Notes under the pieces: generated by a model | The model's database searches: none | What the model was told of the DNA's origin: nothing | The model's input: only the letters and a program-made list of their open reading frames with translations | Shown here: piece after piece, positions 143 to 25,872 of the stretch | Position numbering within the stretch: position 1 is the stretch's first letter | How the letters are laid out: each line of letters opens with the position of its first letter | Translations under genes and position numbers: made by a program | NCBI GenBank assembly: GCA_947174685.1 | Contig: CAMWJY010000001.1 | Span: 1-25,872, forward strand | From: an uncultured Mollicutes bacterium | GTDB lineage: Bacteria > Bacillota_I > Bacilli_A > Acholeplasmatales > Anaeroplasmataceae | Length of the DNA stretch: 25,872 nucleotides | Reading direction: 5' to 3'

Positions 143-177
143 AATTGTCGAAGATTGCTAAGATCGGATGTGTTATG

Positions 178-8533: not shown

Positions 8534-11500
8534 ATGAAAGGATCTTCAAAAAATATTTTAAGAAAAGGAATAAAGCTGATTGGTTTGCTTGCTATGATAT
8601 TGGCAATCGCCTTTATCATTCATAAGCCACTTCAAGAATCTACAGATTTTATAGACGAAGAAGAGTTTGTGCCTCAAGAGCAAACAGATAGAATAAATTT
8701 GGCAAGTACTGCTCCTAACAGCGTAACAGATACTGTTTCTAGCAGTTTGACAGATATTGTTTCTAATAGTGTGGAGTATATTGAGCCGTCATATTCTACA
8801 ACTTCATATAGTATTAGCTATAGTGGAAATACTGATGGTGTGAATACAATCACGTTAAATTATATGTATTTTAATGCATCCCCTGGAGGAAACATTCAAA
8901 TACCTTCCAATTATTATTCAGGTAATACAAATTATACAATAACACGGATTGCAACGAATTTCTATATTCGATATTCTTCATATTATTCATATTATCTTTA
9001 TCCATCAGTGGTAAAATTGCCTGCCTCTATAAGACGTATTGAAAATAATGCGTTTGCACAAAGTTACTTTAATAATACTAAATTTGACTTATCATTGTGT
9101 ACAAACTTAGAATACATTGGTACAAATGCCTTCTATACAACTTCTTCTGAAAATAATCGTAGTATTGTGCAAATAGCTGAATATATGCCAAATCTTACAG
9201 AAATTGGAGAGAATGCCTTTAGAAATGCATTTAAAGTGGAATATGATACAAACGATAGTATGAATATCATGAGCATCAAGCGTATTGGAAAGTATGCTTT
9301 TGGAAATGATACAAACACATCTTCAGGATATTCCTATACTGGTTTACGTGGTATCGTATTTGGAGATTCTTTGGAATATATGGGAGATTATGCTTTCTAC
9401 AATAACGATGGTCTAGAAGATATAAATATTCCAGCAAGTTGTCAAGCAGTTGGCGCATATGCATTTGCTAGCTGTCAGAATATGATTACTGCAACGGTAA
9501 GAACACCGAAAATTGGTACAGCTGCCTTCAAAGATGATGCATCCTTGGTTTCTGTGCGTATAAGTGATTTGACAGAAGAAATTCCTGATTATTGCTTCCA
9601 AAGCTGCAACGCTTTGAGTACAGTCACATTATATCCAAGTTATGATGATATTTCCTTAAGTACTTCTTTAACGAGAATTGGTAAGAATGCATTTAGTAAT
9701 ACAAACTTAAATACATTTACCCTTCCTCAAAATGTTACAGAAATAGGAGATTATGCTTTTGCTGATTGTCGTGGTATGATCGCATTTGATTATTCTATAG
9801 CAGTAGAAAACATGAAGTTAGGAAATGGTATCTTACAAGGCTGTTCCAATATTGAAGAAATTGTAATTCCAGGAGATTTATTTGATTCCTGTGGTATTGA
9901 TTTCTTACGAGATGCAACCTTGCTTTCTAAGGTTACTTTCTTAAAGCAAAATGTTTTAGAGCCAGGCTTCTTTGCAGGATGTGCAAATTTAACAACAATA
10001 ATCTTTGCTGCAGAAGATCCTATTACTCGTATTCCTGATGAGTATTTTAGAGATTGTGTTAAATTAAGTGAATTATCTTTTGTTGATACCACTGGTACAC
10101 ATCATGGTGAATTATCAAGAACAATTGAATCAATTGGTGCATATGCATTCTACAACACTGCTTTTCCAGAAATTACAGTTTCTAATACTGTTGACAGTGT
10201 TGGAAATTATGCATTTGCCAATATGCAATTATTAACATATGCAAGTGTGAATTCAAAAGATATCAGCTATAGAATGTTCTATGGTTGTCCATATTTAGAG
10301 ACTGTTTATATTGGCTCTAATGCTTCAAATGTAATTAAGAAAACAGAAGAGAACATAAGCTCATACGAATTTAATTATAGTACAAATGAGGAAACAATAA
10401 TAAACAAGACGGTTCAAAAAAATGCCGCTTTTGCAAGTTGTATTCGTTTAAATAATCTTACTCTAGAGTGTCCAACCCTAGGTGCTTATATGTTCGATGG
10501 ATGTCTAAGCTTAGAAGAAGTGGAATTAAAAGCGACAATTCGTAATGTAGAAACACATGCCTTTGCAAATTGTCAAGAATTAAGCAGTGTAACTTTACTT
10601 ACTAGTGCATTAGGTGAATTTATGTTCGCAAATGATACTAAGTTAAAGAATATCACCTTAAATCCAAACACAACTACAATCCCAGCACATGCTTTCTATC
10701 GTTCAAACCTAGAATCAATTTCTATCCCATCCTCTGTTACTACAGTTGGAAATTTAGCATTTGCATATTCAATATCTTTACAGTATGCAGATTTGAATTC
10801 ATGTCAAATGATTTCACCTTATATGTTCTTCAATTGTATTGCATTACAGGAAATTGAAATCCCTGCAAATGTTGGCGATAATGTTGGAGATTATGCTTTT
10901 GCTAATTGTACAAATTTAAAAAATGCAATTATTCATAATAGCAAGATTAGTAATTATATGTTCTATAATGACCCATTGCTTTGTGCGCCTTCTACAAGTC
11001 ATCAGACTTTAGTTTTAGGAAGCAATATTCAAACGGTTGGTCAACGCGCTTTTTCAAAATCTGGTGTTACAAAGGTTGAGATAGCAGCAGATCAAATCAG
11101 TAATTATATGTTTGAGGATTGTTTAAGTCTTCAAGAACTTACTATTGGAATTGATGATGGTACTGGTTCATTTGATGCACCTTCTCAAATTGGTTCTTAC
11201 GCATTTAAGGGATGTACTCATTTGAATAGTGTTACTTTAAACATTAGCAAAGTTGGTTCTCATATGTTTGATGGCTGTAATAGTCTTACTTATCTAGTCT
11301 TAGGAAAGCCTATGCAATTGATTGATGAATATGCATTCGCAAATTGTTCTAGTTTAGCAACTGTAAGTACTACAGACCTTACAAATTTAACTGAAATCAA
11401 ACAATATGCATTCGCAAATTGTATTAAATTAAATTCTTTTGTAGTTCCTGATTCTGTTACGAAATTAGGCTTAGGTGTGTTTAGCAATTGTGCAAGCCTT

Positions 11501-14500
11501 AATACTATTACCATTCCTTTTGTTGGTGAAACATTAAATGCTGCAACCACAACTCAGACTGGTTCTACTAGTACAGTATTTGGCTGGATTTTCGGTTCAA
11601 TAGCTTCAGATTCTTCTGCTAGAATTACCAGCTATTATTCAGATACTGGCAATGTTTCATATTATGTTCCAACAGGATTGAATAATGTTATCATTACCCA
11701 AGAAAAAATTGTTATTTATGGTTCATTCTATGGGTATACAATGATACAATCTATTAATATCCCACTCAATACAGAAATCATCCAATCAAAAGCTTTCTAT
11801 GGATGCGAGGGATTAACAGACTTTGTTGTTCCATCTACAGTGAAGAATATTGGTACCGAAGTATTGGCTGAATGTATTGGATTGAGACAAGCTACATTAA
11901 ATTGTAATATTATGGGAACAAAGATGTTCTTCAATTGTGTTAAACTACATACAGTTCACTTGAAAGAAGTTAAATATGTTTCAACCTCTGCATTCCAAGG
12001 CTGTGTAGCATTAGAAATAGTAGACTTGAATCAAGGCAATGGTAGCTTAGGCAATATTTGTACAACTATTTATGAAAAAGCCTTCTATGGATGTAGTAAT
12101 CTTGTTACCCTTGAATTCCCATCTACGATAACACTTATCGATTCTATGGCATTTATGGATTGTGTGAAATTATCTTTTATCACATTACCAAGCAGTTTAA
12201 CTACGTTAAAACAACAGGCATTTGCAAATTGTGATAGTTTAGTATCCATTGTAATCCCTCAGAATTTATCTGAATTAGAAGCATCAATCTTCGTTAATTG
12301 CGATAACATAAGATCTGTGTTATTTACGAATGAGATTGTTGGAGAACGTATGTTTGAGGGCTGTAATACTATTCAAACAATTGAATTACAAAGAATTAAA
12401 GAAATTAAAAAGTTTGCTTTTTCAAATTGTTCTAGTATAGAAGATTTAATTTTACCAAATACTTTAACAACTCTTGGTCAAGGTGCTTTTATGAATTGTG
12501 CATCTATAAAAGAACTTGTTGTGCCAGAATCTGTTGTTTCTGTTGATGCTAGTGTATTCCAAGGCTGTACTGATTTACTTTATGTAACACTTAAAAATAC
12601 AAAAATGGGAACAAGTATGTTTGAAAACTGTACAAGCTTAAGAAATGTAGCTTTTGGAGCTCCAGAAACAGCTCCAGCTTATGCAATTTCTTCTAGAGCT
12701 TTCTATGGATGCTTTGAATTGCTATTCCCAGAATTGCCAAAAAATATTAATGAAATTGGAAGCTGGGCATTTGCTCAATGCTATAGAAATACAATTATTA
12801 ATATTCCAAAGACGATTGGAACTATGGGAGTAGGTGTATTTTGGGATATTGATGTTGAGGAAGCTATCATACCATTCATAGGTATGAATCGTGAACCAGC
12901 ATATCTTTCATATAGTGGTAATTATGGTTATTCAAGATATGTATTAGGTTGGATATTTGGTGCATCTAATCCTAGTTTGAATCCAACTATTGTGGCTAGT
13001 GGAACAAATTATACAACTCCATCTAAGGCTTATGAATGTAAAGTAAGCTATAATAATTCATATTCTTACTACTATAAGACAGAAGCTTGGTATTTACCTA
13101 AGTCTTTAACGAAGGTAACAGTGACAGATGCAAAAACTATACCATATTTTGCTTTCTGGTCAGCAGTAAATTTGACTGATATTGTAATAGAAGATACAGT
13201 AGAAATTATTCGTGAAAGTTCAATGTATAATTGTACAAGCTTAACAAATCTAGTAGTTCCATTCATAGGACTTGAACGTGGGGCTACAGGTGTTGCAAAT
13301 ACAAGTATTTTCTATGGTAGTTCTACGATTCGTTTCCATAAGAGCAGCATTGCATCATGGTTCTTGACAATGCCTGGTGGAAGCTATAGTTCTGTAGTTT
13401 ATAATGACTATGATAAAACTTCACCAGTAACTACGGTAGTTACGAGTGAACTTTCTATGCCAGCTACGACAAATTATAGTCATCCAATTCGTTATCAAGT
13501 TCCACTTTCTTTAAAAAATGTTGTAATAAGAGATTCTAATAATAAGAATTCTAGTTCTAAAAATTCTATAGGATTAGGTGAAGCTGCATTTTATAATTGT
13601 TCAATGATAAAAAATGTTACTTTTGAAGGTCATTTAGTAGCAATTGGTAAGAATGCGTTCTATAATTCTGGCATTGATTTCATTGATATTCCTAGTACGG
13701 TTGGAACTGTTGGCGAAGGTGCTTTTTCAGGCATGAAGAGCTTAGAAAATGTTATTGTTCGTTCATCAAGTATTTCTTCAAAAATGTTTGAAGGCTCTAC
13801 TGGATTAAAGAATGTTGAGATTTTAGGAACTAATGTTTCAGTTGGTTCTGCTGCATTTAGAAATTGTACATCTTTACTATCTGTTAACTTTAATCAATCT
13901 GTAATTAGTGTAGGAGAAGAAGCGTTCGCTGGATGTACGAAGTTAGAATCCTTATACATTAATAAGATTGGCTGTATATCAAATGGTGCGCTTCTTGCTG
14001 GATCTCACAATTTTGGATATTTATTCGGTAAGACTGCTGGTACAGGATTAGTTGCAAATACTACTCAGATTTCTGAAACAGAAACTGTAGTTAGATATTT
14101 ACCACAAAATTTATCTGTATACTTTATTGGTAGCGAAATTCCTGCTTATGGTTTTGCTGGTGTTTCAAGTATTCAAATAATCGATTTAGCTGAAGGCTTA
14201 ACAAAAATTGGTGATTATGCATTTAAAAATACTACAAATTTGAAGACTATTAGAATCCCATCATCCTTTAAAACGGATGGAACAACACCTGCTGGTGGAA
14301 AGAATATTTTCGAGAATTCTGGCTTAGTAACTGTTTATTTTGGTGAAGGAATTTCTAAAATATATGAGGGAATGTTTGCAGATTGTAGTGAACTTACAAA
14401 TCTGATTTTCGAGTCAACAACTACTATATATGAATACCGCTATATTTCAAACAATATATTCGAAGAATATAAAAAGGTAGGTTATACAGGTCAATTTATT

Positions 14501-17500
14501 TCTACAAATCGCTTAATTTGTGGTGGTAGAGATTTGACTGTAGGTACTGCAGATGACATTGAAAATATTATAATTGGTGGAGATTCCAAGTATTATCTTG
14601 ATAATCAAGACGGTACTTATTATGCATATGGTAAGGATACTTTGTTAGGAACATCTGATGATGTCTTAATTGGTATGGGTAATGACCAAGTATTAGGTAG
14701 CGATGATGACTTCGTTATCGTAGAATTTGGTGGTAAAAAATATAAAGATTTCTTTGATAATACCTATTGTACTATTACTATTGTAGAAGCAGAAGATGGA
14801 CAATGGAATTATGCATTTGGAATGACAAGATATACAAGAATAAATAATGCTTTTGTTGAAATTATTTTAGATGAAAAAGACCAAGCTTACATTGCTGTTC
14901 AAGATGATCAATATATTCTTTACCGTAGTACAGGCAAGGATGGAATCATTGGTACAGAAGATGACCGAATTGTTTTCTTAGGATTAACGGGTACAGAATA
15001 TACTAACATAACTGATGCAATTATTTATGATAGTGTCTTTGTTTGGGATGGCAAATTATATTATGATTATAGAGATAATACTTATCAAGAAATTGTTGTT
15101 TCTTCTACAGATGCCAATGGCTTTAGATTAGAAGAAATCTTTGGTGCTGGTCCAGATGCAATCATTGGTACAGAAGATGATATCTCTAAGTATACATCTA
15201 TAACTTTTGATAAGATTCAATCAGATGATTCTTTAGCGGATTATGGTAAATTATTATCTACTATCGATCAGAAGGCATTACAAGAATATACATACCAACG
15301 CATTATTACTGGCGATGATGGTACACATTACATTTATTTGCCTTGGGCTTCTTATTTGAATGAGCCTTCTTATTTAGGCTGTGGTAGAGATGGTCTATTA
15401 GGTACTGACGATGATATTTTAGGCGCTACAACAAACTTTAATATTGTTGTTGAAACTCCTAAACCAGAAGAAGAAATTATCATTCCAGTTGTAAATACGA
15501 CAACCTATAGAGTTTATGAATATAGAAGATATGAAGATAACGTTATGGCAAATACAGTTAAAATAATAGAAGAAGAAGCCTTCATTAACTGTACGAGCTT
15601 AACAAATTTAGTTCTTTCTGCACAATTGGTTGAAATTCATGACAAGGCATTCTTTAATAGTGGCTTAGAAGAAATAACAGTTCCTTCTTCAGTAGAATTC
15701 CTTGGTAGACATGTATTTGCTGAAAATAAGAGTTTAGTAAATGCAGTCATTATGTGTGAAGTCATTGGAGAATATATGTTTAGTAAGGATGAAAAACTTG
15801 CAAAAGCTTCTATCGCATATAATACAAGAGAAATAAGTAAAGGTGCATTTTATGAATGTAAGTCTTTAAGAATCATTACTTTCCATTCTAATTTCATTCA
15901 AGATATTCATTATGAATTGCCAGATGGATATTTCCCTGATGGAAGTGAGCCTTCTAATGGATCACCTGATGAACCAGAGGATCCTCTGCCGGGTGAGGAC
16001 TATGTTACATTCTTAGTTCGTAGAGCTCAAAGCAGTGCTGTAACTGTTGAAAATGGATTAGATAATAAGGAAGGTACTGCAGACGATTACTATAGCTATG
16101 GTAATTATTATAAACTAATTGGTATTGACTTAGTTGCTCAAACAATGGATGATATTGTTGTATTAATTTATGATGGCGCATATTATGAAGTAGTAGGTTA
16201 TCAAAATTTAAATAAAACAATTAACCTATATCGAAAAGTGACTTATTCTGCAGGAACAAATTCATTTATTTTTGGTGATTATTTCTTAGGAAATAGCAAT
16301 GGTGAATTCTCTTTAGAAAATCAATCAGTAACATTAAATTTAATAGAGGATGCAAGTGGTAATTATTCCTATAAAGTGGGTAATTTAGTATATGATTATG
16401 GCCAAGATGGTAAGCTTGGTACTACAGATGATGTCATCACTATTACAATTGATCAAACGACCTATGTTGTAGTAGAAATTGAAGGATCATATTATACTGA
16501 ACTTGCTACAAATGTTTATTATGAAGTAGATGTTGATTCCTTAACACTTAGACTTGTTTATTATGATGGTACAAGCTTTGTAGATACAATTGCATCTATT
16601 ATGAATCAATACTATTTTGTAAATGAAAATCACACATTACAATTGATTTCTAATGGCTCTATTGAAGAAGATGTTTATATTTTAGATAATAACATTTTAG
16701 TTTCAGTAGAAGAAAAACAGCCTAATCAATTCTTTGAATTCTTAAGAGGTAACTTCTATCGTTTATGGCAATATTCCAATAATCAGTTTAGATCATCTAT
16801 TGTTTGTGTAATGGATGAAGAGTTTGAAACTTTAGAAGATGCAGTATATTTAAGAGGAAATGATACATATGCTGTCTTCCTTGGAAATGCTTTATATCAG
16901 GTTCCAGGAGCTGATGGACTTTACGGTACAGATGATGATGAATATATCATCAATGATAATCCAACAGAAAATGTTGGTGGTCTAGTTTTCGTGTATCGTT
17001 CTGATGGAAAATACTATCATTATCATAATTTCAATATTTACTTTGTATTAGATTTAGATAATTATGTTTATAGCTATGTATGTGCTGGTCTAGATGAAGA
17101 TCCAACTACTGAAAGTGATAACTTCACAAATGTTGTTATAGGAAATGACGGTAACTTCTATTTGAACAATGAAGACGGAACTTATTATACTGTAACTAAC
17201 AGCAAATTAACTGGTACAGCTTCTGATACATTGGTTTGCCCTCAGGATGCTACAACTATTGGCAATCCAACAGATTATGTATTAAGAAAATATAATGAAG
17301 AATTCTATAGAGATTATTTAGATAATACCTTTGCAAAAGTTGATTTTGTAAAGCAAGGTAATTATTGGAAGGCTCAATTATCTGATGAACGTTTTGTAGG
17401 TACAAATACAGGTGCATTAGATCCTACAATTACACCAAGAATTACAGTGGAAAATAGAAATGGATTAGTGTATATCGATAATCATGATGGTACATTTACG

Positions 17501-20500
17501 TTATTAGGTAAAGATAATCTATTTAATACTGCTGATGATACACTTCATTTATTAATGGAAAATCAAGTTGCAGATGCAGATGATCCAAAGGTTGTTAAGG
17601 GATCTTACGTAAGTCAAGGTTCATCTGAAGAAGAAACGTATTATTACTTAGATATGGGTGATAATCATAACGTATATCGTAAGTATCAGATTTCTGGAAC
17701 AGAAGGAAATTATGAATATACTGACTTAGGTTTAATTGCAGCTAACATTGATTTTAAACCAGGTAATGTAAATGATGTTACTGCTTTCTATAATGAAACT
17801 TTAAAAGCATACTATTATTTAGATTCTTCTAGTGCTAGAAGAGGCTATGGTGAAGATGGTATTCTATATGGTTCCGGAAAGAATCAAGATTCCAAATATG
17901 TCATGGCTGATGGAAACTATGTAGATGTTACAACAATCACATTAAATGGTGTGGCTAATCTATATCATATTAATGCGGATAATACATATACAAAATATAT
18001 AGAATTAGATACACCTGTTGATGGAAATACGCATAGAGTAGACGGCTATGTTTGCTTAGGAAGTGACCGTGTTCTTCAAAGCACCGATTCTACTGATGTA
18101 GTAGAAGTCATTGTTAATGGTGAAGTGCTTCATTTCTTACATATAGCAGGAATGCCAACATATATTGCTGCTGGTGAAGATGGTTTACTAGGCTTTGGCG
18201 ATGATGATATTTTATGTCATGTTGGAACTGGCGGAATAGAATTCACAGGTGAAGGCTCAGATGATATCCTTGATATCGTTGCTGGAAAAGAAGATGAATA
18301 TTATTATAAGCATGTTGCAGGAAATATTTATCAACGTATTGAAAGTGGTGTATTAGGACGTTATGTTGCAGCTGGACTTGTTTCAGGTGAATACTGTGTT
18401 GGTACAGCAAAGGATTTAGTTCAAAATACAAATGATATTCAAAACATTACTACAGATTATGTAGAATTCGATTCAAATAACTATTTACTTGCTACAGCTG
18501 ACGGAATAATTAGCTTTGAAGAAAGTCAAATGGTACATACTTCAAATATTAATGACCCAGCTACTTATGTACTTGTACATAATGGTAAGGATAATACTTA
18601 TCATACTGCTGATGACTACATTGTAGTAGATGGCATAGCAACATTCGCACAACAAGATGGATTAATTGGATCAACAGATGATTTGACAAATGTTGTTTTA
18701 GGCTTAGACGAATTACCTTATGAATATGATTCTGTTAAGGATATTTATTATACCTATACTTTATCAGTAGATAGATTTGTTGAAGCCTTTGACGGAAATT
18801 CAAATCGTATCGCTCTATATTCTTCAAATGCTGTTGGCGATAGTGAGGATAAGACTTTAACTGCTCTAACTTTAAATGGCACAACTCAATATTATTTACA
18901 AAATAATTCTACAAGCTTTTATACATATGCAACAGGTACTATATTAGAATATTTAGTTCATGTTGGCTTGAACGATGACGGAACAGCTGCCTCATTAGGA
19001 AGTGTTTATAACTATGCAATGGTTGGCAATACTGCTCACTTTGTTGGTCTAGATTTAAGAATCGGTACAAGTGATGACTTGGTTGCGTTCTTAGGAGAAA
19101 ATGATGAACGTCCATATACATATGTTGATTCTATAGATCATAACATTTATATTACATATGATTTAACAACTTATACAGAATTACCTTCCCCTACAGGCGG
19201 CAAGTATATCATTTCTGCAGGTAGTGACAGAAGAATCGGAACAGATGATGATATTGATACTGTTATTCAGGTATCTGGTCACTATTATTATACAGATATG
19301 GATGGCTTGTATTTCACATCACCTAATAATATATTAGGATATTCTGACATGAGAATGTATGTTGGCGCTGATGGTGAGATAGGTACAAAGGATGATTACT
19401 ATAATGTTACTCGTTATCTACCTGGTAACCTTGGATACAAGGCAACCTTCGTTGGACCAGATGGCTATTATAGCGGTGGTGACGATTTAATTGCAGTTCT
19501 AGGTGTAAATCAATATGCTTACTATGCACTTACAGATGCAAAGAAGAATCAATACAATAACTTATATAGACGTTATAGTATGGATGAAATGTCTTATATC
19601 TCATTAGTTGGTGATACAATTTGTGGTGGTGCAAATTGTCGTCCTGGAGATTCTGATGATATTACAGAAACTAGTGGCAAATTGGTTCACGCACAAAATG
19701 GTGATTGGTATTTGACAGTTGAAGGTAGTACAAAAGAGTATTTGAATAAGAGCTTTGATGGTTTACTTGGTACTGCAGATGATAAACACATCTTTATTGG
19801 TGAGGATGCTGAGCTTGGTACTTATGACGATTATTATTGGATTTTAATTGATAATTTCAATCGTAAGGTATTCCCAGGTACAACACCTATATTAGACAGT
19901 GATACAGATGAAGTAAAAGAGTGGAAGAGATTCCATGGTGATGACGTATTCTTTACTGAAGATGATTATTATAGTGTTCCATCTGAACAAATTGTTGAGG
20001 TTGAAAACCAAACTCCTTATTCTCTAGAAAGTATTCAGGATTATGCATTCTATAATTGTGTTTCTTTAGAGCATTTACAATTATATTCTCCTGATGATTT
20101 CAATACTTATCAAAACTTAAATACTTTAGGTTCCTATGCTTTTGCTGGATGTACTTCTTTAAAAGAAATGATTTTCCCTTATACTCTACAAGGAGATAAA
20201 TTGACATCAGCAGATGATACTGGATATGGTGAATATATATTTGAAGGCTGTACATCATTAGAGACTGTTACTTTCAATGAAACATATTTAAGCCATGCTA
20301 CCTTTATTCCTAAAGGAATGTTTAAAGGATGTATCTCTCTATCTGAATTATACTTCTATGATTCCTTAACTAAGCTTGAAATGAATCATTTCTCACCTTA
20401 TCTTGAGGAAATTAGAGAAGAAGCATTTATGAATACATGGGCTATGGATGAGGATGGCAAGCCAATTTCATCAGATCCAGAGATAGGAAGCGTTGTAATT

Positions 20501-23500
20501 GAAAAATCTACTCTTAAGGTTTTAGAGCACGCATTCTATAATTCAGACATTACTCATGTAACCTTTAAGGCTGAAGAACAGATTGAGTTTGGTTCTGAAG
20601 TATTTAAGAATTCTAAAATAGAATATGCAGAATTCAATTTTATAGAAACATTTGCTTATCGTATATTTGATGAGTGTATATATTTAAGCACAATCTATAC
20701 ACATGAAAATGGAGTAAAGCTTGAGAAAAATACTTTATCAAGTGATGTGAAAAACATTGAAGAGCAAGCATTCAGAGGAACAATTGCTCTAAAAGAACTT
20801 CATATAGATGATGAGATAGATTATATTGGTGATGAAGCATTTATAGGAACAGGATTAGAGTCTATTCGTATCCCTTCATCCCTATCAAAGGAAGATACAG
20901 AAGATCATTTAGGTGTATCTGTTTTTGAGAATGCAAAATCATTGACTTATGCAGAATTTGCTTATGGTACAGTAATCATTCGTGATAAATTATTTAAGAA
21001 TTGTACTTCCTTATCAACTTTACAATTCTATGATTATGAAGGAAACCAAACAGGGGTCGCTGTTACAGCAAATGAGGGTATTTATGAGGTTGATTTCGTA
21101 GCTAAGGAAGATTATGTAACCTCTGGTACTGTTACGGCTCTACAATTAAATACTTTCGCAACAACTGTAACTACAGTGGAGCAATATGCTTTCTATAACT
21201 GTCCTTTAAATGGTATGATTGATGGATCCTATACAGATACTATTCATACAATCACATTTACAAACAGCTTGACAAATCTTGGTGATTATTGCTTTGCATA
21301 TACTGATATTGAAAGTATTGCAATTCCTTCAAGCATAAAGCAAGAGAATATCGGTGATTGTGTATTTGCACATTGTAAAAAACTAAAAGATATTGTCTTT
21401 GAAAATGAAGGCCTTGGTAATCAAATGTTCTATGATTGTACAGGTCTTATCAGATTAGAGTTCCCAAGTGGAGTAACCTCTATTGGTGCTTACGCATTCC
21501 AAAATTGTACCGCTTTGGAGACTGTTATCATTCCTAAGGACGTACAATATATTGCAGAAGGTGCTTTTGCAAACTGTATAAAGATTTCACAGCTTACCTT
21601 ACCATTTATTGGTTCTGAGCGTGGAAGTACAGGTGAAGAGGGATTATTTGGTTGGATTTTTGGTAGTAATCCAGTTGATACTATTGAGCCTACAAGACAA
21701 TATTATTCTCAAACTGAATATAAGGATAACTATATCCCAGTTACAATTCAAAGAATCACAATTACTGATGAAACCTTAGTTAGCTATGGTGCTTTCTATA
21801 ACTGTGTATTAGAGTATATTAAGCTCCCAGATTTACAGGACAAAGATGTAAATGCAGATAATGTTAGTCAATTGGTACGCATTGGCGATTATGCATTCTA
21901 TAATTGTCCAAATCTAGATACTGCATTAATTCCTACTCAAATTACTGCTATCGGTAATTATGCCTTTGCATACTGTGTGAATGTAGAAAACCTAGCGCTT
22001 CCAGCAGGCTTAAAGGAATTAGGTAATTATTCTTTCTATCATTGTGAATCTTTACCTACTATTACAGTTCCATCCTCTGTTTCATCTAGTTTGATTGGTA
22101 CACATGTATTTGCATACTGTACATCAATTCATACTTTATATTTGGAAAATGATTCATTGGGTGCTAAGATGTTTAGTAACTGTATTAGCTTAGTTTCTGT
22201 TGTAATTCCTGTTGGAGTTACGACAATTGAAACAGCAACCTTTGAAAATTGTACAAGTTTAAAATATGTTGCTATTCCAGAAACTGTAACTGAAATTAAC
22301 GAAGCAGCCTTTAAGCAATGTGCTTCATTAGAGGTTTTAATCTTACCATTCATTGGATCTGAACGAGGAAATTCTGGTACGCCTCAATCCTTATTTGGAT
22401 GGGTATTTGGTACTACTGGTTCAGCAGCTGATTCCTTTGATGGTGCACAAACAGTAAATCAGGTTTATGCTGCATCTAAATCTAGAAATGTCTTAGTACC
22501 AAGCACATTAAAAGAAGTATATATTACAGATGAAACTGTGATTGGTTATGGCGCATTCTCTAACTTCTATATGTTAAAGAAAATCGTTATCTCTCAAGAC
22601 TTAAAATTCTATGGAGATGATGAGAATCATACATTTAGTTTTGATTTACAGCGTGATGAAGATGAAAATGTAATTGGTGTAACACTTCCACTACAGGATG
22701 CTACCTTATATAATGGTATGTATATATATAAGGATAATACATATACTATGCCAAATCAGGCTACACCTTTAGATGAAGAAGAATCATTGAGTACAATGAT
22801 TGATTTCTATAGCTTATATGTTGATACAAATATTGCACATATTTATCCTTATGCATTCTCTAATAATAATGGATTGACTAATGCTTTCTTAGGCGTTACA
22901 AATATAGCAGATTCTAGTTATGCATTTAATGATTGTTCTAAATTAGAGTATTGTTATATGCCTGATGCTACAGGTACCCAAGCAGATAATATGTTTGCTT
23001 ATTGTACAGGATTAAAGCGTGTTATCATCCCAGATACAATTAATATCTTAGGTGAAGCTGCATATCGTTGGTGTTTGAATATTGAATACTTCCAAGTACC
23101 TTATCTTGGTCGTGATGGCGGTACGCTTATTGATGGTAAGAGATTCCAGCAAACAATAGGCTATCACTTTGCTCCAGATGAGACTTATAGAGGAAGTGAA
23201 TCTACTTATTATAATAGAAATATTTCTTCTTATTGTGGTGGTAATTTCACCTATGATCCTACCGCTCCAGATTATAATTCTTATTATGGAAGAACTTCTA
23301 TACGTTATGTGCCTAGAAGCTTTAAGCTAGTAGTCACTTTAGATACACGTCTAACTTATTCTAGTTTAGCACAAATGGGCACTGCATTAACTGAAGTATA
23401 TTTCTCTGATCAATTAACATATATAGAGTCTAATTTCTTTACTAGTACACCTGATGTAAAGAGACTTGGTGTATGGGATTCTACTAATTATCATATTAAT

Positions 23501-25872
23501 GAAATTCCAGAAGGCCAAGCAAGATTTACGGATAATTTATTAACTATTGCAGCTCAAGGCTTTGCTGGTTGGCATGGTCTAAAGGATATTGTAGTACCAA
23601 ATAGTGTACAAATGATTGGTACAGATGCATTTGTTAATACAGGTCTTGTGAAGATGGTTTTACCATTTGTTGGTGTAAGTAGACCTCAGGATCTTTCAAA
23701 ATATCCTACAGGAAATTTAGGATTAAATGCTACTTTTGGTTGGTATTTTAATGAAGATGATAACAATTATAGCGTTCAAAATACTCGTTGGAATGCAACA
23801 AAGGTTACTTATCCAATTAACTCACAAAAGGTTTCTAGTTATAATCCAGATTCAGCAGTTTGGGTTCCTTCAACGTTAAGAACTGTAATCATTACAGATA
23901 CAGATACAATTGCTGATGATGCCTTTAGAAATATGTCAATGATTCAAAGAATTGTCCTTCCATTTGGTCTAGATACAGAGGATGAGAATAAGCTAGGTAT
24001 GCCACCAGTGTATGCCTCTGATGAAGCAGAGCTTTGTGATATCTCTGTAACCTCAATCGGTAATCATGCTTTTGATGGTACAGGCTTACTTGAAATGTAT
24101 ATTCCTGCAAGTGTTGATACAATAGGAGAGTATGCATTTAGTAATAATAAATCAATGACAAAGTTTGTATCTAATACAGATGCAATTAACAATTATATGT
24201 TCTATGGCTGTACTAGATTGTTTGATGTTGTATTAGATTATATTACAGTTATTCCAGATTATGCTTTCTATGAGTGCGATGCATTAGTATCTATCCATAA
24301 TACAAGTGAGGATGATTGGAATATATTTGAGCATCAAATTACATACATTGGAGATTATGCTTTCTATGGCGCTGATCATTTCACTTACCCACTAACAGAA
24401 GCAGAAGCGAATACAACTTTAATTACTTCTATTGGCTGGTATGCTTTTGCCAATATTGCTGATATTGGTCAATCAGGCAGTGATATTGTAGTTCATTTAC
24501 CTGTTGATTTGAATACACTAGGTGAAGGTGCATTCTATAACACACCTAATATCTCTGAATTCTATATGTATGATAAGGTTACATCTATGCCTTATGAACA
24601 TACATATACGGCAGCTTCAACAGAATATAAAGGTATTTTGGAGAATGTTGCTCACTTGAGAATATTCAAGAGTGAGAGTGCAATCATTATGGAAAGAATG
24701 AACATGAATGATGCAAAGCTTGAAACATTATATATTCCTTATGTAGAAAATATAAAGGCTTATGCATTCTATGGAAATACTTCCTTAAAAGATGCAACAA
24801 TTTCTTCTGCAAACATTATAGAAGATTATGCATTCTATCATAATACATCTTTAAGAGACTTTGCCACTGGCGCTTATATTGGTGGTTCCTTTGATGCTAC
24901 AACTACGGTGTTTGATACATTAATTACATCTATTGGTAATTATGCATTTGATGGAGATACAGTATTAGTTTATCCATTTAAGAATCCTTTAAATGATGCA
25001 ATCGTGATTACATCCATTGGAAATTATGCATTCAGAGATTGTAAGTTTATGGGTGGTTCTAAAGAAGTGTCTACAACTGTAGGAGAAGATACAGTTATTT
25101 CTACTCAAGCACTTGGAAAGGCAGATGTTGTCTTACCTAAAACATTGACAACATTAGGTGAAAATGCGTTCTTAAATGATACGAATATTCGTTCATTAGT
25201 AACTCCAGAAGGATTAGTTACAATTGGTGATTATGCATTTAGAAATTGTACCGATTTACAGGAAATCACTATGCTTGGTGAAATTTCTGGTGCTGGTATG
25301 TTTAGAGGGGATACTGCGCTTAAAAATGAAGATGGAACTAAGATTCATATAGAAAAATTGACAATAATAGCAAGAGAAATGTTTGCTGAATGTATCAATT
25401 TGAAAAATATTTACTTGCCAAAGCAAGATGTTGAGACGAATGCTTTAGGTCTAAAAACTATTGGTGATTTTGCATTCTTTGATACACGTGCTGTAGTAAA
25501 TGATTTTGGTACTGATGAGTATCATGAAACAATTTATGTTCCTAATACGGTACAAACCATTGGTTCATTTGCATTCTATAATAATCAGGCTATTAAAAAT
25601 ATCTATATTGAAAAAGATTCATTATTGACGATGGGTGTTTCAACTTTTGCAAGTTGCTTTAGTCTAGAAACCTTAACTATCCCATTCATTGGCTATCGTC
25701 AAGGGGATGATACAACTTCCAATTATTTGTATTTCCCATACAATATTAATAGTGTTAATACTACTACAAAGGCTTATTCTACAACATATTATTATTATTC
25801 AACATTACATTTTAATTTCTATTTGTATGAATATGCTTACTATAATCCAGCAAATAATGCAAGAACATATAA
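8534..25872 (+). CDS. Giant secreted/surface BspA-type LRR protein with inserted acidic GxDxxxGTxDD-repeat domains (partial, at least 5779 aa, runs off the 3' end)
   Basis: ATG 8534 gives MKGSSKNILRKGIKLIGLLAMILAIAFIIHKP, a basic N-region plus hydrophobic segment with a possible AIA signal peptidase site. Manual translation gave no stop, and the last codons ...PANNARTY (TAT 25868-25870) are in the same frame. The track lists no + ORF here, which fits an ORF that lacks a stop within the window. LRR_5-like blocks at about 9008-14413, 15551-15883 and 20015-25872. Confidence 0.93.
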   Translation, partial: MKGSSKNILRKGIKLIGLLAMILAIAFIIHKPLQESTDFIDEEEFVPQEQTDRINLASTAPNSVTDTVSSSLTDIVSNSVEYIEPSYSTTSYSISYSGNTDGVNTITLNYMYFNASPGGNIQIPSNYYSGNTNYTITRIATNFYIRYSSYYSYYLYPSVVKLPASIRRIENNAFAQSYFNNTKFDLSLCTNLEYIGTNAFYTTSSENNRSIVQIAEYMPNLTEIGENAFRNAFKVEYDTNDSMNIMSIKRIGKYAFGNDTNTSSGYSYTGLRGIVFGDSLEYMGDYAFYNNDGLEDINIPASCQAVGAYAFASCQNMITATVRTPKIGTAAFKDDASLVSVRISDLTEEIPDYCFQSCNALSTVTLYPSYDDISLSTSLTRIGKNAFSNTNLNTFTLPQNVTEIGDYAFADCRGMIAFDYSIAVENMKLGNGILQGCSNIEEIVIPGDLFDSCGIDFLRDATLLSKVTFLKQNVLEPGFFAGCANLTTIIFAAEDPITRIPDEYFRDCVKLSELSFVDTTGTHHGELSRTIESIGAYAFYNTAFPEITVSNTVDSVGNYAFANMQLLTYASVNSKDISYRMFYGCPYLETVYIGSNASNVIKKTEENISSYEFNYSTNEETIINKTVQKNAAFASCIRLNNLTLECPTLGAYMFDGCLSLEEVELKATIRNVETHAFANCQELSSVTLLTSALGEFMFANDTKLKNITLNPNTTTIPAHAFYRSNLESISIPSSVTTVGNLAFAYSISLQYADLNSCQMISPYMFFNCIALQEIEIPANVGDNVGDYAFANCTNLKNAIIHNSKISNYMFYNDPLLCAPSTSHQTLVLGSNIQTVGQRAFSKSGVTKVEIAADQISNYMFEDCLSLQELTIGIDDGTGSFDAPSQIGSYAFKGCTHLNSVTLNISKVGSHMFDGCNSLTYLVLGKPMQLIDEYAFANCSSLATVSTTDLTNLTEIKQYAFANCIKLNSFVVPDSVTKLGLGVFSNCASLNTITIPFVGETLNAATTTQTGSTSTVFGWIFGSIASDSSARITSYYSDTGNVSYYVPTGLNNVIITQEKIVIYGSFYGYTMIQSINIPLNTEIIQSKAFYGCEGLTDFVVPSTVKNIGTEVLAECIGLRQATLNCNIMGTKMFFNCVKLHTVHLKEVKYVSTSAFQGCVALEIVDLNQGNGSLGNICTTIYEKAFYGCSNLVTLEFPSTITLIDSMAFMDCVKLSFITLPSSLTTLKQQAFANCDSLVSIVIPQNLSELEASIFVNCDNIRSVLFTNEIVGERMFEGCNTIQTIELQRIKEIKKFAFSNCSSIEDLILPNTLTTLGQGAFMNCASIKELVVPESVVSVDASVFQGCTDLLYVTLKNTKMGTSMFENCTSLRNVAFGAPETAPAYAISSRAFYGCFELLFPELPKNINEIGSWAFAQCYRNTIINIPKTIGTMGVGVFWDIDVEEAIIPFIGMNREPAYLSYSGNYGYSRYVLGWIFGASNPSLNPTIVASGTNYTTPSKAYECKVSYNNSYSYYYKTEAWYLPKSLTKVTVTDAKTIPYFAFWSAVNLTDIVIEDTVEIIRESSMYNCTSLTNLVVPFIGLERGATGVANTSIFYGSSTIRFHKSSIASWFLTMPGGSYSSVVYNDYDKTSPVTTVVTSELSMPATTNYSHPIRYQVPLSLKNVVIRDSNNKNSSSKNSIGLGEAAFYNCSMIKNVTFEGHLVAIGKNAFYNSGIDFIDIPSTVGTVGEGAFSGMKSLENVIVRSSSISSKMFEGSTGLKNVEILGTNVSVGSAAFRNCTSLLSVNFNQSVISVGEEAFAGCTKLESLYINKIGCISNGALLAGSHNFGYLFGKTAGTGLVANTTQISETETVVRYLPQNLSVYFIGSEIPAYGFAGVSSIQIIDLAEGLTKIGDYAFKNTTNLKTIRIPSSFKTDGTTPAGGKNIFENSGLVTVYFGEGISKIYEGMFADCSELTNLIFESTTTIYEYRYISNNIFEEYKKVGYTGQFISTNRLICGGRDLTVGTADDIENIIIGGDSKYYLDNQDGTYYAYGKDTLLGTSDDVLIGMGNDQVLGSDDDFVIVEFGGKKYKDFFDNTYCTITIVEAEDGQWNYAFGMTRYTRINNAFVEIILDEKDQAYIAVQDDQYILYRSTGKDGIIGTEDDRIVFLGLTGTEYTNITDAIIYDSVFVWDGKLYYDYRDNTYQEIVVSSTDANGFRLEEIFGAGPDAIIGTEDDISKYTSITFDKIQSDDSLADYGKLLSTIDQKALQEYTYQRIITGDDGTHYIYLPWASYLNEPSYLGCGRDGLLGTDDDILGATTNFNIVVETPKPEEEIIIPVVNTTTYRVYEYRRYEDNVMANTVKIIEEEAFINCTSLTNLVLSAQLVEIHDKAFFNSGLEEITVPSSVEFLGRHVFAENKSLVNAVIMCEVIGEYMFSKDEKLAKASIAYNTREISKGAFYECKSLRIITFHSNFIQDIHYELPDGYFPDGSEPSNGSPDEPEDPLPGEDYVTFLVRRAQSSAVTVENGLDNKEGTADDYYSYGNYYKLIGIDLVAQTMDDIVVLIYDGAYYEVVGYQNLNKTINLYRKVTYSAGTNSFIFGDYFLGNSNGEFSLENQSVTLNLIEDASGNYSYKVGNLVYDYGQDGKLGTTDDVITITIDQTTYVVVEIEGSYYTELATNVYYEVDVDSLTLRLVYYDGTSFVDTIASIMNQYYFVNENHTLQLISNGSIEEDVYILDNNILVSVEEKQPNQFFEFLRGNFYRLWQYSNNQFRSSIVCVMDEEFETLEDAVYLRGNDTYAVFLGNALYQVPGADGLYGTDDDEYIINDNPTENVGGLVFVYRSDGKYYHYHNFNIYFVLDLDNYVYSYVCAGLDEDPTTESDNFTNVVIGNDGNFYLNNEDGTYYTVTNSKLTGTASDTLVCPQDATTIGNPTDYVLRKYNEEFYRDYLDNTFAKVDFVKQGNYWKAQLSDERFVGTNTGALDPTITPRITVENRNGLVYIDNHDGTFTLLGKDNLFNTADDTLHLLMENQVADADDPKVVKGSYVSQGSSEEETYYYLDMGDNHNVYRKYQISGTEGNYEYTDLGLIAANIDFKPGNVNDVTAFYNETLKAYYYLDSSSARRGYGEDGILYGSGKNQDSKYVMADGNYVDVTTITLNGVANLYHINADNTYTKYIELDTPVDGNTHRVDGYVCLGSDRVLQSTDSTDVVEVIVNGEVLHFLHIAGMPTYIAAGEDGLLGFGDDDILCHVGTGGIEFTGEGSDDILDIVAGKEDEYYYKHVAGNIYQRIESGVLGRYVAAGLVSGEYCVGTAKDLVQNTNDIQNITTDYVEFDSNNYLLATADGIISFEESQMVHTSNINDPATYVLVHNGKDNTYHTADDYIVVDGIATFAQQDGLIGSTDDLTNVVLGLDELPYEYDSVKDIYYTYTLSVDRFVEAFDGNSNRIALYSSNAVGDSEDKTLTALTLNGTTQYYLQNNSTSFYTYATGTILEYLVHVGLNDDGTAASLGSVYNYAMVGNTAHFVGLDLRIGTSDDLVAFLGENDERPYTYVDSIDHNIYITYDLTTYTELPSPTGGKYIISAGSDRRIGTDDDIDTVIQVSGHYYYTDMDGLYFTSPNNILGYSDMRMYVGADGEIGTKDDYYNVTRYLPGNLGYKATFVGPDGYYSGGDDLIAVLGVNQYAYYALTDAKKNQYNNLYRRYSMDEMSYISLVGDTICGGANCRPGDSDDITETSGKLVHAQNGDWYLTVEGSTKEYLNKSFDGLLGTADDKHIFIGEDAELGTYDDYYWILIDNFNRKVFPGTTPILDSDTDEVKEWKRFHGDDVFFTEDDYYSVPSEQIVEVENQTPYSLESIQDYAFYNCVSLEHLQLYSPDDFNTYQNLNTLGSYAFAGCTSLKEMIFPYTLQGDKLTSADDTGYGEYIFEGCTSLETVTFNETYLSHATFIPKGMFKGCISLSELYFYDSLTKLEMNHFSPYLEEIREEAFMNTWAMDEDGKPISSDPEIGSVVIEKSTLKVLEHAFYNSDITHVTFKAEEQIEFGSEVFKNSKIEYAEFNFIETFAYRIFDECIYLSTIYTHENGVKLEKNTLSSDVKNIEEQAFRGTIALKELHIDDEIDYIGDEAFIGTGLESIRIPSSLSKEDTEDHLGVSVFENAKSLTYAEFAYGTVIIRDKLFKNCTSLSTLQFYDYEGNQTGVAVTANEGIYEVDFVAKEDYVTSGTVTALQLNTFATTVTTVEQYAFYNCPLNGMIDGSYTDTIHTITFTNSLTNLGDYCFAYTDIESIAIPSSIKQENIGDCVFAHCKKLKDIVFENEGLGNQMFYDCTGLIRLEFPSGVTSIGAYAFQNCTALETVIIPKDVQYIAEGAFANCIKISQLTLPFIGSERGSTGEEGLFGWIFGSNPVDTIEPTRQYYSQTEYKDNYIPVTIQRITITDETLVSYGAFYNCVLEYIKLPDLQDKDVNADNVSQLVRIGDYAFYNCPNLDTALIPTQITAIGNYAFAYCVNVENLALPAGLKELGNYSFYHCESLPTITVPSSVSSSLIGTHVFAYCTSIHTLYLENDSLGAKMFSNCISLVSVVIPVGVTTIETATFENCTSLKYVAIPETVTEINEAAFKQCASLEVLILPFIGSERGNSGTPQSLFGWVFGTTGSAADSFDGAQTVNQVYAASKSRNVLVPSTLKEVYITDETVIGYGAFSNFYMLKKIVISQDLKFYGDDENHTFSFDLQRDEDENVIGVTLPLQDATLYNGMYIYKDNTYTMPNQATPLDEEESLSTMIDFYSLYVDTNIAHIYPYAFSNNNGLTNAFLGVTNIADSSYAFNDCSKLEYCYMPDATGTQADNMFAYCTGLKRVIIPDTINILGEAAYRWCLNIEYFQVPYLGRDGGTLIDGKRFQQTIGYHFAPDETYRGSESTYYNRNISSYCGGNFTYDPTAPDYNSYYGRTSIRYVPRSFKLVVTLDTRLTYSSLAQMGTALTEVYFSDQLTYIESNFFTSTPDVKRLGVWDSTNYHINEIPEGQARFTDNLLTIAAQGFAGWHGLKDIVVPNSVQMIGTDAFVNTGLVKMVLPFVGVSRPQDLSKYPTGNLGLNATFGWYFNEDDNNYSVQNTRWNATKVTYPINSQKVSSYNPDSAVWVPSTLRTVIITDTDTIADDAFRNMSMIQRIVLPFGLDTEDENKLGMPPVYASDEAELCDISVTSIGNHAFDGTGLLEMYIPASVDTIGEYAFSNNKSMTKFVSNTDAINNYMFYGCTRLFDVVLDYITVIPDYAFYECDALVSIHNTSEDDWNIFEHQITYIGDYAFYGADHFTYPLTEAEANTTLITSIGWYAFANIADIGQSGSDIVVHLPVDLNTLGEGAFYNTPNISEFYMYDKVTSMPYEHTYTAASTEYKGILENVAHLRIFKSESAIIMERMNMNDAKLETLYIPYVENIKAYAFYGNTSLKDATISSANIIEDYAFYHNTSLRDFATGAYIGGSFDATTTVFDTLITSIGNYAFDGDTVLVYPFKNPLNDAIVITSIGNYAFRDCKFMGGSKEVSTTVGEDTVISTQALGKADVVLPKTLTTLGENAFLNDTNIRSLVTPEGLVTIGDYAFRNCTDLQEITMLGEISGAGMFRGDTALKNEDGTKIHIEKLTIIAREMFAECINLKNIYLPKQDVETNALGLKTIGDFAFFDTRAVVNDFGTDEYHETIYVPNTVQTIGSFAFYNNQAIKNIYIEKDSLLTMGVSTFASCFSLETLTIPFIGYRQGDDTTSNYLYFPYNINSVNTTTKAYSTTYYYYSTLHFNFYLYEYAYYNPANNARTY
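14417..15550 (+). repeat. Non-LRR insert 1 (about 378 aa) with 6 GxDxxxG[TS]xDD motifs
   Basis: Motifs at 14525 GRDLTVGTADD, 14630 GKDTLLGTSDD, 14678 GNDQVLGSDDD, 14933 GKDGIIGTEDD, 15149 GPDAIIGTEDD and 15383 GRDGLLGTDDD. No LRR periodicity in between. Confidence 0.85.
15884..20014 (+). repeat. Non-LRR insert 2 (about 1377 aa) with about 16 or more GxDxxxGTxDD-type motifs
   Basis: Exact matches at 16055, 16400, 16907, 19046, 19220, 19364 and 19799, plus about 9 near matches (e.g. GKDNLFNTADD, GEDGLLGFGDD, GKDNTYHTADD, QQDGLIGSTDD, SFDGLLGTADD). Rich in Tyr, Asp, Gly and Thr. Opens with a Pro/acidic linker (LPDGYFPDGSEPSNGSPDEPEDPLPGED). Confidence 0.85.
21290..22580 (+). repeat. Internal duplication of a 248-aa LRR plus PFIG-module unit (744-nt offset) in the giant ORF
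   Basis: Colinear anchors all at a 744-nt offset: PSS (21326/22070), EN..LG..MF (21401/22145) and PFIGSERG (21602/22346). These are followed by LFGWIFG/LFGWVFG and ITDETxxxYGAF in both copies. Confidence 0.8.

Follow-up and report, generated by a model that had tools for sequence, protein, structure and literature searches.

The window analysed here, 25,872 nt in length, is a whole contig (C1; CAMWJY010000001.1, positions 1 to 25,872, forward strand) of a 72%-complete, 1.24-Mb metagenome-assembled genome (MAG) from an uncultured gut Mollicutes bacterium of the family Anaeroplasmataceae (GCA_947174685.1). Its third open reading frame (ORF3) codes for part of a very large leucine-rich-repeat (LRR) protein of the BspA type (Pfam LRR_5, PF13306), in which the regular repeats are interrupted at nine places by a module with the general form PF[IV]G, loop1, FGWIFG, loop2, Y[IV]P. 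The module is best read, from its predicted structure, as one irregular coil integrated in a continuous LRR_5 solenoid and consisting of a short helix and a beta-hairpin of variable length. What is new is a very large member of a known family, along with a repeat variant of LRR_5 that is common and apparently undescribed. We think it probable that the module is such an irregular coil and a family-wide building block, present in this protein in about 27 copies with distinct, conserved hairpins, and we lean towards structural decoration or bracing as its primary role.

The regular repeats next to the modules are exemplified by CTSLKYVAIPETVTEINEAAFKQC followed by CASLEVLILPFIG. By comparison, the opening frame of the module (LxLP) is an ordinary inner strand, and the closing frame (SLxxVxITDxxxIxYGAFxNC) continues as the usual following repeat, with T replacing P. 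Only about 14 residues between the two frames (xSVxxIGxxAFxxC) are swapped for F[IV]G, loop1, FGWIFG, loop2 and Y[IV]P, as seen in the individual sequences and in an alignment of the modules with their orthologs (A1). The features concerned are as follows:

8534..25870, + strand: ORF3, 5779 aa, the N-terminal part of the protein, with an open 3' end at the contig end
11516..11701, + strand: M1, with PFVG, a loop1 of 17 aa, FGWIFG, a loop2 of 22 aa and YVPTGLNNVIITQ; 82 bits against the module profile described below, of which it is a training member
12872..13129, + strand: M2, with PFIG, a loop1 of 20 aa, LGWIFG, a loop2 of 43 aa containing SYNNSYSYYYK, and YLPKSLTKVTVTD
13259..13534, + strand: M3, with PFIG, a loop1 of 27 aa, the variant core ASWFLT, a loop2 of 42 aa and QVPLSLKNVVIRD
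13961..14134, + strand: M4 (degenerate), with NKIG replacing PFxG, FGYLFG, a loop2 of 22 aa and YLPQNLSVYFIG
21602..21769, + strand: M5, with PFIG, a loop1 of 11 aa, FGWIFG, a loop2 of 22 aa carrying the family anchors Q-Y-Y, and YIPVTIQRITITD
22346..22531, + strand: M6, with PFIG, a loop1 of 12 aa, FGWVFG, a loop2 of 27 aa and LVPSTLKEVYITD
23099..23344, + strand: M7 (variant), with PYLG, a loop1 of 15 aa, IGYHFA, a loop2 of 44 aa containing STYYNRNISSY, and YVPRSFKLVVTLD
23663..23899, + strand: M8, with PFVG, a loop1 of 20 aa, FGWYFN, a loop2 of 36 aa and WVPSTLRTVIITD; 81 bits against the profile, a training member
25682..25870, + strand: M9, with PFIG and a Tyr-rich loop, ended by the contig edge
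6037..6159, + strand: minimal degenerate copy in ORF2, with PYLE, 3 aa, FGCLFG, 17 aa and YLPNTLRTVRLD

Nine modules in ORF3 and a minimal one in ORF2 had been proposed in a sequence-only reading of the window, and their anatomy was reproduced. The reported starts coincide with the P of PF[IV]G, or of its equivalent, in the frame of ORF3, except for 13960, which lies one base before the NKIG codon (13961). The three frame motifs were recovered, as were the distances between the first and last proline, which are 51, 75, 81, 47, 45, 51, 71 and 68 aa for M1 to M8 and 31 aa for the ORF2 copy. A profile of 96 positions was built from M1, M2, M5, M6 and M8 with their orthologs (alignment A1), and these five score 78–94 bits against it, all being training members. 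M3, which was outside the training set, scores 27 bits (E 3e-7), and M7 gives a weak 8.6 bits (E 0.17), its ortholog in the same-genus genome G004 scoring 19.6 bits (E 5e-8). M4 had been described as degenerate, in agreement with its non-significant 4.5 bits, and it is kept at its place in the orthologs. The orthologs of M9 continue to the closing frame YIPYSLKEINVTNE, and that of G004 scores 36 bits, while the ORF2 copy matches the profile in its closing part only (positions 58–94, 14.9 bits). The core is variant in M3, M7 and M9. Taking profile scores and context together, six copies are judged solid (M1, M2, M3, M5, M6 and M8), M7 and M9 are plausible by context, and M4 and the ORF2 copy are degenerate. 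A regular expression for the whole frame matched five times in ORF3 and once elsewhere in the genome, and had no match in any of 20 shuffles of all 933 ORF segments.

Searched in three pieces, ORF3 matches LRR_5 with 794, 204 and 516 bits (E-values 3e-243, 6e-61 and 2e-157; gathering cut-off 27.7 bits), and its LRR_5 arrays cover residues ~100–1960 and ~4060–5779 with a non-LRR region between them. Orthologous open frames of 16,138–16,498 aa are present in five genomes of the genus (G002, G004, G007, G009 and G014), and over ORF3 residues 4300–4700 the orthologs of four same-genus species are 73–78% identical to ORF3. In G004 the ortholog was assembled as a protein of 16,440 aa (contig C4, about 27,277–76,596; loci L020, L035 and L036). 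Given these ortholog lengths and the assembled G004 protein, ORF3 is the first third of a giant (~16,400 aa), presumed surface protein of the BspA LRR type. The orthologous gene, at about 49 kb, makes up some 2.6% of a 1.9-Mb genome. The full-length G004 protein carries 27 modules; about as many are taken for the giant protein of the window, where nine of them lie. The C-terminus of the G004 protein is a dockerin type I domain (32 bits, cut-off 22.9), with an MBG_3 match ahead of it. At the N-terminus of ORF3, a basic segment is followed by a hydrophobic stretch (LIGLLAMILAIAFII, residues ~14–29), a candidate signal or membrane anchor.

The module was modelled with AlphaFold 2 (AF2) within its surrounding repeats. 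The model of ORF3 residues 4300–4700 (401 residues, including M5 and M6; five orthologs in the alignment) has a mean predicted local distance difference test score (pLDDT) of 86 and a predicted template modelling score (pTM) of 0.80. In M5 (pLDDT 89–95), the strand LTLP is followed by a coil, a short helix on LFGWIFG (model residues 73–77), a beta-hairpin (88–91 and 97–100) and the ITIT strand (108–111). M6 (pLDDT 74–89) has the same plan, with its helix at 322–325 and a longer hairpin (339–347 and 350–357). A second model, of residues 1395–1720 with M2 and M3, has a mean pLDDT of 71, and in M2 it again places a helix on LGWIFG and a long beta-hairpin behind it (model residues 105–113 and 120–128). 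In a phmmer comparison of the protein with solved LRR_5 chains, 4fs7 and 4gt6 were matched (E-values 8e-40 and 8e-34), and a Foldseek search with the AF2 model gave a probability of 1.00 for 4fs7, 4gt6, 4h09, PcpA (4cp6) and TpLRR (6mlx). It is this predicted plan and the likeness to solved LRR_5 proteins that lead us to read the module as an irregular coil within the solenoid.

The module is widespread beyond this gene. An hmmsearch of 1.84 billion cluster representatives with the module profile returned 9,956 matches at E <= 1e-3, 4,507 at <= 1e-10 and 990 at <= 1e-30. Many matching proteins hold 5–27 stretches that fit the profile. The full frame is present in 146 of the best 150 matches, which hold 579 modules in total; the core is FGYIF in 364 of these and FGWIF in only 11. 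Loop1 is mostly 10–13 aa long, and loop2 falls into length classes of 9 aa (168 modules), 22 aa (100) and 27 aa (79), with a tail up to 87 aa. The short form has the consensus A-S-S-Y-S-D-N-S-D-Y-V-P, which is highly conserved across proteins, and the 22- and 27-aa forms share Y4, G6 and Q12 (91–94%), then Y-Y, plus a further Y-Y before [IV]P (82–85%). At the most conserved loop2 positions the consensus residue is found in 80–94% of cases, and loops of the same length from different proteins have a mean identity of 38%. Successive modules are separated by a median of 194 aa (interquartile range 114–352 aa). Where matches are named, they are 'leucine-rich repeat protein' entries from MAGs of Clostridia and Izemoplasmatales. 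The distribution is patchy in an even sample of the window's GTDB phylum, with 11 of 299 genomes positive at E <= 1e-6; for the family to which the window belongs the count is 4 of 9. Judging from these matches, the module is a common, so far unnamed building block of LRR_5 surface proteins in Firmicutes and Mollicutes.

Searches of family, structure and literature resources did not retrieve an earlier description. Seven module cores had no Pfam match at E <= 10, LRR_5 included, by which the Listeria-Bacteroides repeat (Flg_new) and the choline or cell-wall binding repeats were rejected as candidates, and pieces of the module had no match in NCBIfam. A search of PDB with the module profile retrieved only the trailing regular repeat in 4gt6 (E 0.016) and 4h09 (E 0.13) and no chain with the module; a picornavirus VP2 match in the same search was put down to chance. 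A literature search with strings of the core motif returned no relevant paper, and a look-up of M5 in the ESM Atlas gave generic LRR_5 clusters only.

Within the same genome (G000), other LRR_5 proteins carry the common form of the module, on contigs C24 (ORF residues ~821–889) and C99 (two copies); that on C24 reads PFVG...LGYIFGANSYTKNKSFVPGNLRKVAV and has a loop2 of 9 aa. Another genus of the family (G300) has a further frame of 15,200 aa with 16 modules. In the G004 ortholog, two near-identical modules lie 243 aa apart (residues 11,889–11,975 and 12,132–12,218, locus L035), suggesting that part of the giant gene was recently duplicated in tandem.

Set against the family classes, the loop2 of M1, M4 and M5 is of the 22-aa type and that of M6 of the 27-aa type, and those of M2, M3, M7 and M8 (36–44 aa) belong to the long tail. 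The Y-Y anchor is retained in M1 and M5, the Q before it also in M5, and an aromatic residue precedes [IVL]P in most modules. The claim that the loops of ORF3 share almost no sequence is borne out, as the paralogous loops have no detectable similarity (mean z 0.18 relative to shuffles; 0 of 28 pairs with z > 3). Their enrichment in polar and tyrosine residues is likewise real: Y, S, T and N account for 44.8% of loop residues and for 31.1% elsewhere in the LRR parts. Depletion of L, I, F, M and C is 2–4-fold, as in exposed segments. Given the family-wide loop consensus and length classes, this Tyr/Ser/Thr richness is an inherited family trait and, like the 22- and 27-aa lengths of M1, M4, M5 and M6, not an adaptation of this gene.

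For the evolution of the loops, ORF3 was aligned with the N-terminal parts of the five orthologs, four of which are 59–67% identical to it and the fifth, that of G007, 38%. Every module is found at the same place in all five and the loops can be aligned. The more distant G007 shows large insertions to be tolerated in the hairpins. Pairwise identity among the orthologs, gap frequency and nonsynonymous divergence (dN, Nei-Gojobori) differ between the parts of the protein:

Frame: identity 0.76, gaps 0%, dN 0.16
Other LRR positions: identity 0.685, gaps 1.0%, dN 0.25
Central non-LRR region: identity 0.66, gaps 0.9%, dN 0.27
Loops: identity 0.49, gaps 7.5%, dN 0.52
N-terminal ~100 aa: identity 0.33, gaps 9.6%, dN 0.68

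The loops are therefore more variable than the rest of the gene (identity 0.49 versus 0.685), with a dN roughly double the value for other LRR codons. The outcome that the sequence-only reading had named as a refutation, loops no more variable than their surroundings, was thus not observed. With gaps counted as mismatches, per-column conservation is 0.47 in the loops and 0.605 at the polar residues of ordinary repeats. An earlier expectation that divergence would be concentrated in the loops thus holds for the rate between species (dN 0.52 versus 0.25) and not for dN/dS (omega), which is only about 0.37 in the loops, a rough value since dS is saturated (proportion of synonymous differences, pS, about 0.64). 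A similar expectation for strain polymorphism was not borne out: among 40 listed differences (of 80), 33 are synonymous and 3 lie in loops, where 2.7 would be expected, in data that are thin and silent on rare variants, as they consist of short contigs with patchy cover from three runs of one study. Joints in these strain contigs have sides of 21–59 nt and look like cross-joins between LRR repeats. The overall pattern is that of individually maintained hairpins under relaxed purifying selection, presumably on exposed surfaces.

These observations would fit together as follows. In an ordinary repeat, about 14 residues (xSVxxIGxxAFxxC) link the IP at the end of the inner strand to the next SLxxVxI strand. 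In the module that link gives way to F[IV]G, then loop1 as a coil, then FG[WY]IFG, which is predicted to form a short helix, and then loop2, a predicted beta-hairpin whose length varies. Its end, Y-[IVL]-P, leads into the next regular strand, and SLxxVxITDxxxIxxxAFxxC itself forms a normal repeat. Across the family, the hairpins come in discrete sizes of 9, 22 and 27 aa, with anchors at Y4, Q12, Y-Y and the Y-Y before [IV]P. In the giant protein, several are enlarged to 36–44 aa and have diverged from one another beyond recognition, each being retained in position and in sequence among the species of the genus. Through the conserved aromatic anchors, the helix and the hairpin may be packed against the solenoid flank. 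The core would then have a structural role, and this would explain why thousands of unrelated proteins share an almost unchanged short form. Between the anchors, polar residues would face the solvent and evolve under purifying selection that is relaxed but not lost. The outcome would be a series of distinct knobs on the surface, from which an adhesin-like protein may gain contact specificity.

Several points weigh against this explanation. The Tyr-rich tip of M2 and most of M3 are of low confidence in the AF2 model, and the alignments behind the models are shallow, with only five to six orthologs. The packing of the hairpins and their solvent exposure are inferred. A few positively selected loop sites could hide in the averaged omega, and in conservation the loops rank near the 5th percentile of the gene's 25-aa windows (not beyond the minimum), as exposed binding loops would.

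As in the sequence-only reading, the hairpins could instead be the functional ligand-binding sites. Each module would have its own glycan or protein target, and the frame would only be the holder in a multi-specific adhesin. The loops are mutually distinct, and their polar make-up, with much Tyr, Ser and Thr, is one often met in binding surfaces. No other structured part of the LRR regions evolves as fast; each loop is also conserved between species with an omega below 1, which implies constraint beyond that on a mere spacer. BspA-type LRR proteins are described as adhesins in the literature. However, the composition and anchors of the loops are the consensus of thousands of unrelated proteins, which argues for a role in folding, the short form is highly conserved from protein to protein, and the non-synonymous differences among the 40 listed for strains are not concentrated in loops. 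We regard ligand binding as the main function of the hairpins as possible but rather unlikely. Its most elaborate form, in which each of about 27 hairpins would be a separate recognition site on a 16,000-residue, membrane-anchored, dockerin-tipped and multi-specific adhesin for host or microbial surfaces, strikes us as improbable.

A constant scaffold carrying variable Tyr/Ser-rich loops had also been likened to antibodies and to the variable lymphocyte receptors (VLRs) of lampreys. The constant scaffold and the individually different loops stand, but beyond this outward resemblance the analogy is not supported, since omega is about 0.37, the loops are kept orthologously across five species and the listed strain differences are not enriched in them. 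Active diversification, by cassette recombination or by mutagenic retrohoming of the kind seen at the targets of diversity-generating retroelements (DGRs), would predict strain hypervariability. The window DNA has no near-identical repeats suited to act as donor cassettes or templates, and a reverse transcriptase was not searched for in the rest of the genome. The direct and inverted repeats of at least 30 nt found in the window are only divergent versions of the usual LRR consensus (IGxYAFxNC in ORF1 to ORF3 and a Y-D-G segment in ORF2) and of a central Asp-rich motif, mostly with a 60–82% match to the reference and at most 87%. With no suitable repeats in the window, DGR or cassette diversification was rejected, and we consider active diversification of the loops very improbable. 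The modules might instead be boundary or capping elements, or flexible joints, between LRR sub-solenoids, in keeping with their irregular intervals (median gap 194 aa, as above) and the position of M4 about 90 aa ahead of the first large non-LRR insert. Against this, AF2 predicts 401 residues with two modules as one body (pTM 0.80, and pLDDT 89–95 through M5), and the closing frame forms an ordinary LRR strand that runs straight on into positions of the IGxxAF type, so joints or caps appear quite unlikely. We accordingly keep to the module as an irregular coil of the solenoid, probably with a structural role.

The remaining genes of the window and the non-LRR parts of ORF3 also have features of note. 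Upstream of ORF3 are two further genes:

145..2067, + strand: ORF1, 640 aa, with an LRR_5 match
2083..8166, + strand: ORF2, 2027 aa, with an LRR_5 match

All three ORFs thus code for BspA-type LRR proteins. Close relatives of the source MAG are on record as uncultured MAGs of Anaeroplasmataceae or Mollicutes, and one comes from a catalogue of the mouse gut. The N-terminal half of ORF2 (window 2083–5400, residues ~30–1000) is an array of ~75-aa repeats with the pattern Y-D-G-x-x-H ... G-x-L-P-x-G-V ... Y-x-N-N ... G-x-Y, mirrored at the DNA level by repeat families D2, D6 and D8. A Pfam search with ORF2 itself gave no match for this array at E <= 0.01. The repeats may be distant MBG-like domains, given the MBG_3 domain in the C-terminal part of the giant protein of G004.

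The central non-LRR region of ORF3 matched no Pfam or NCBIfam family; NCBIfam hits to HupY (17.9 bits, cut-off 1250) and Stx1B (17 bits, cut-off 204) were far under their cut-offs and were discarded. Between residues 1998 and 3766 (window about 14,500–19,800) an Asp-rich motif, G-x-D-x(3,4)-G-T-x-D-D, occurs 17 times, examples being GKDGIIGTEDD and GRDGLLGTDDD. All copies lie within the central region, shuffles give 0.06, and there is some resemblance to calcium-binding loops. The first large non-LRR insert (window about 14,390–15,690, residues ~1953–2385) is bracketed by Tyr-rich strands (TTTIYEYRYISN ... NTTTYRVYEYRRYED) and sits between the LRR strand LTNLIFE and a regular V-K-I-I-E-E-E-A-F-x-N-C segment, so that it looks as if a whole domain were placed at the tip of a hairpin. 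It was rejected as a copy of the module, as it is without PFxG and FGWIFG.

Few predicted surface proteins of gut Firmicutes and Mollicutes are as abundant as those of the BspA LRR type, which occur also in some protists and, to our knowledge, have poorly known modes of binding. Against this background, a helix-plus-hairpin insertion found in about 10,000 protein clusters, without an entry in Pfam, NCBIfam, PDB or the literature searched, provides a new sub-domain for annotators to model. It is also a clear structural target, as a fragment of 100–400 aa is confidently modelled by AlphaFold, and the antibody-like analogy is replaced by a more modest and testable picture.

Excursions from an LRR solenoid are known to contribute to ligand binding in the island domains of plant LRR receptor kinases (BRI1), the Z-loop of the Toll-like receptors TLR7–9 and the LRRCT hairpin of lamprey VLRs. 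In each of these, as in the module, a regular solenoid is interrupted by an excursion from one repeat. However, those inserts belong to a different LRR class without sequence relation to the module, ligand binding is theirs, and neither somatic nor population-level diversification was found for the module. The BspA-type and TpLRR proteins of solved structure (4fs7, 4gt6, 4h09, 4cp6 and 6mlx), which are extracellular or surface-located, share with ORF3 the repeat consensus LxxIxIPxSVxxIGxxAFxxC and the predicted solenoid, but the solved LRR_5 chains are without the PFxG-FGYIFG-YxP module and the giant protein is about 40 times longer. The closest counterpart of the window modules is the unnamed module PFVG-x(10-13)-FGYIFG-x(9/22/27)-Y[IV]PxSLKxVxI of Clostridia, Izemoplasmatales and Mollicutes, with which they share the frame, and from which they differ in having FGWIF rather than FGYIF as the core, in the expansion of four loops to 36–44 aa, and in the divergence of the paralogous loops from one another.

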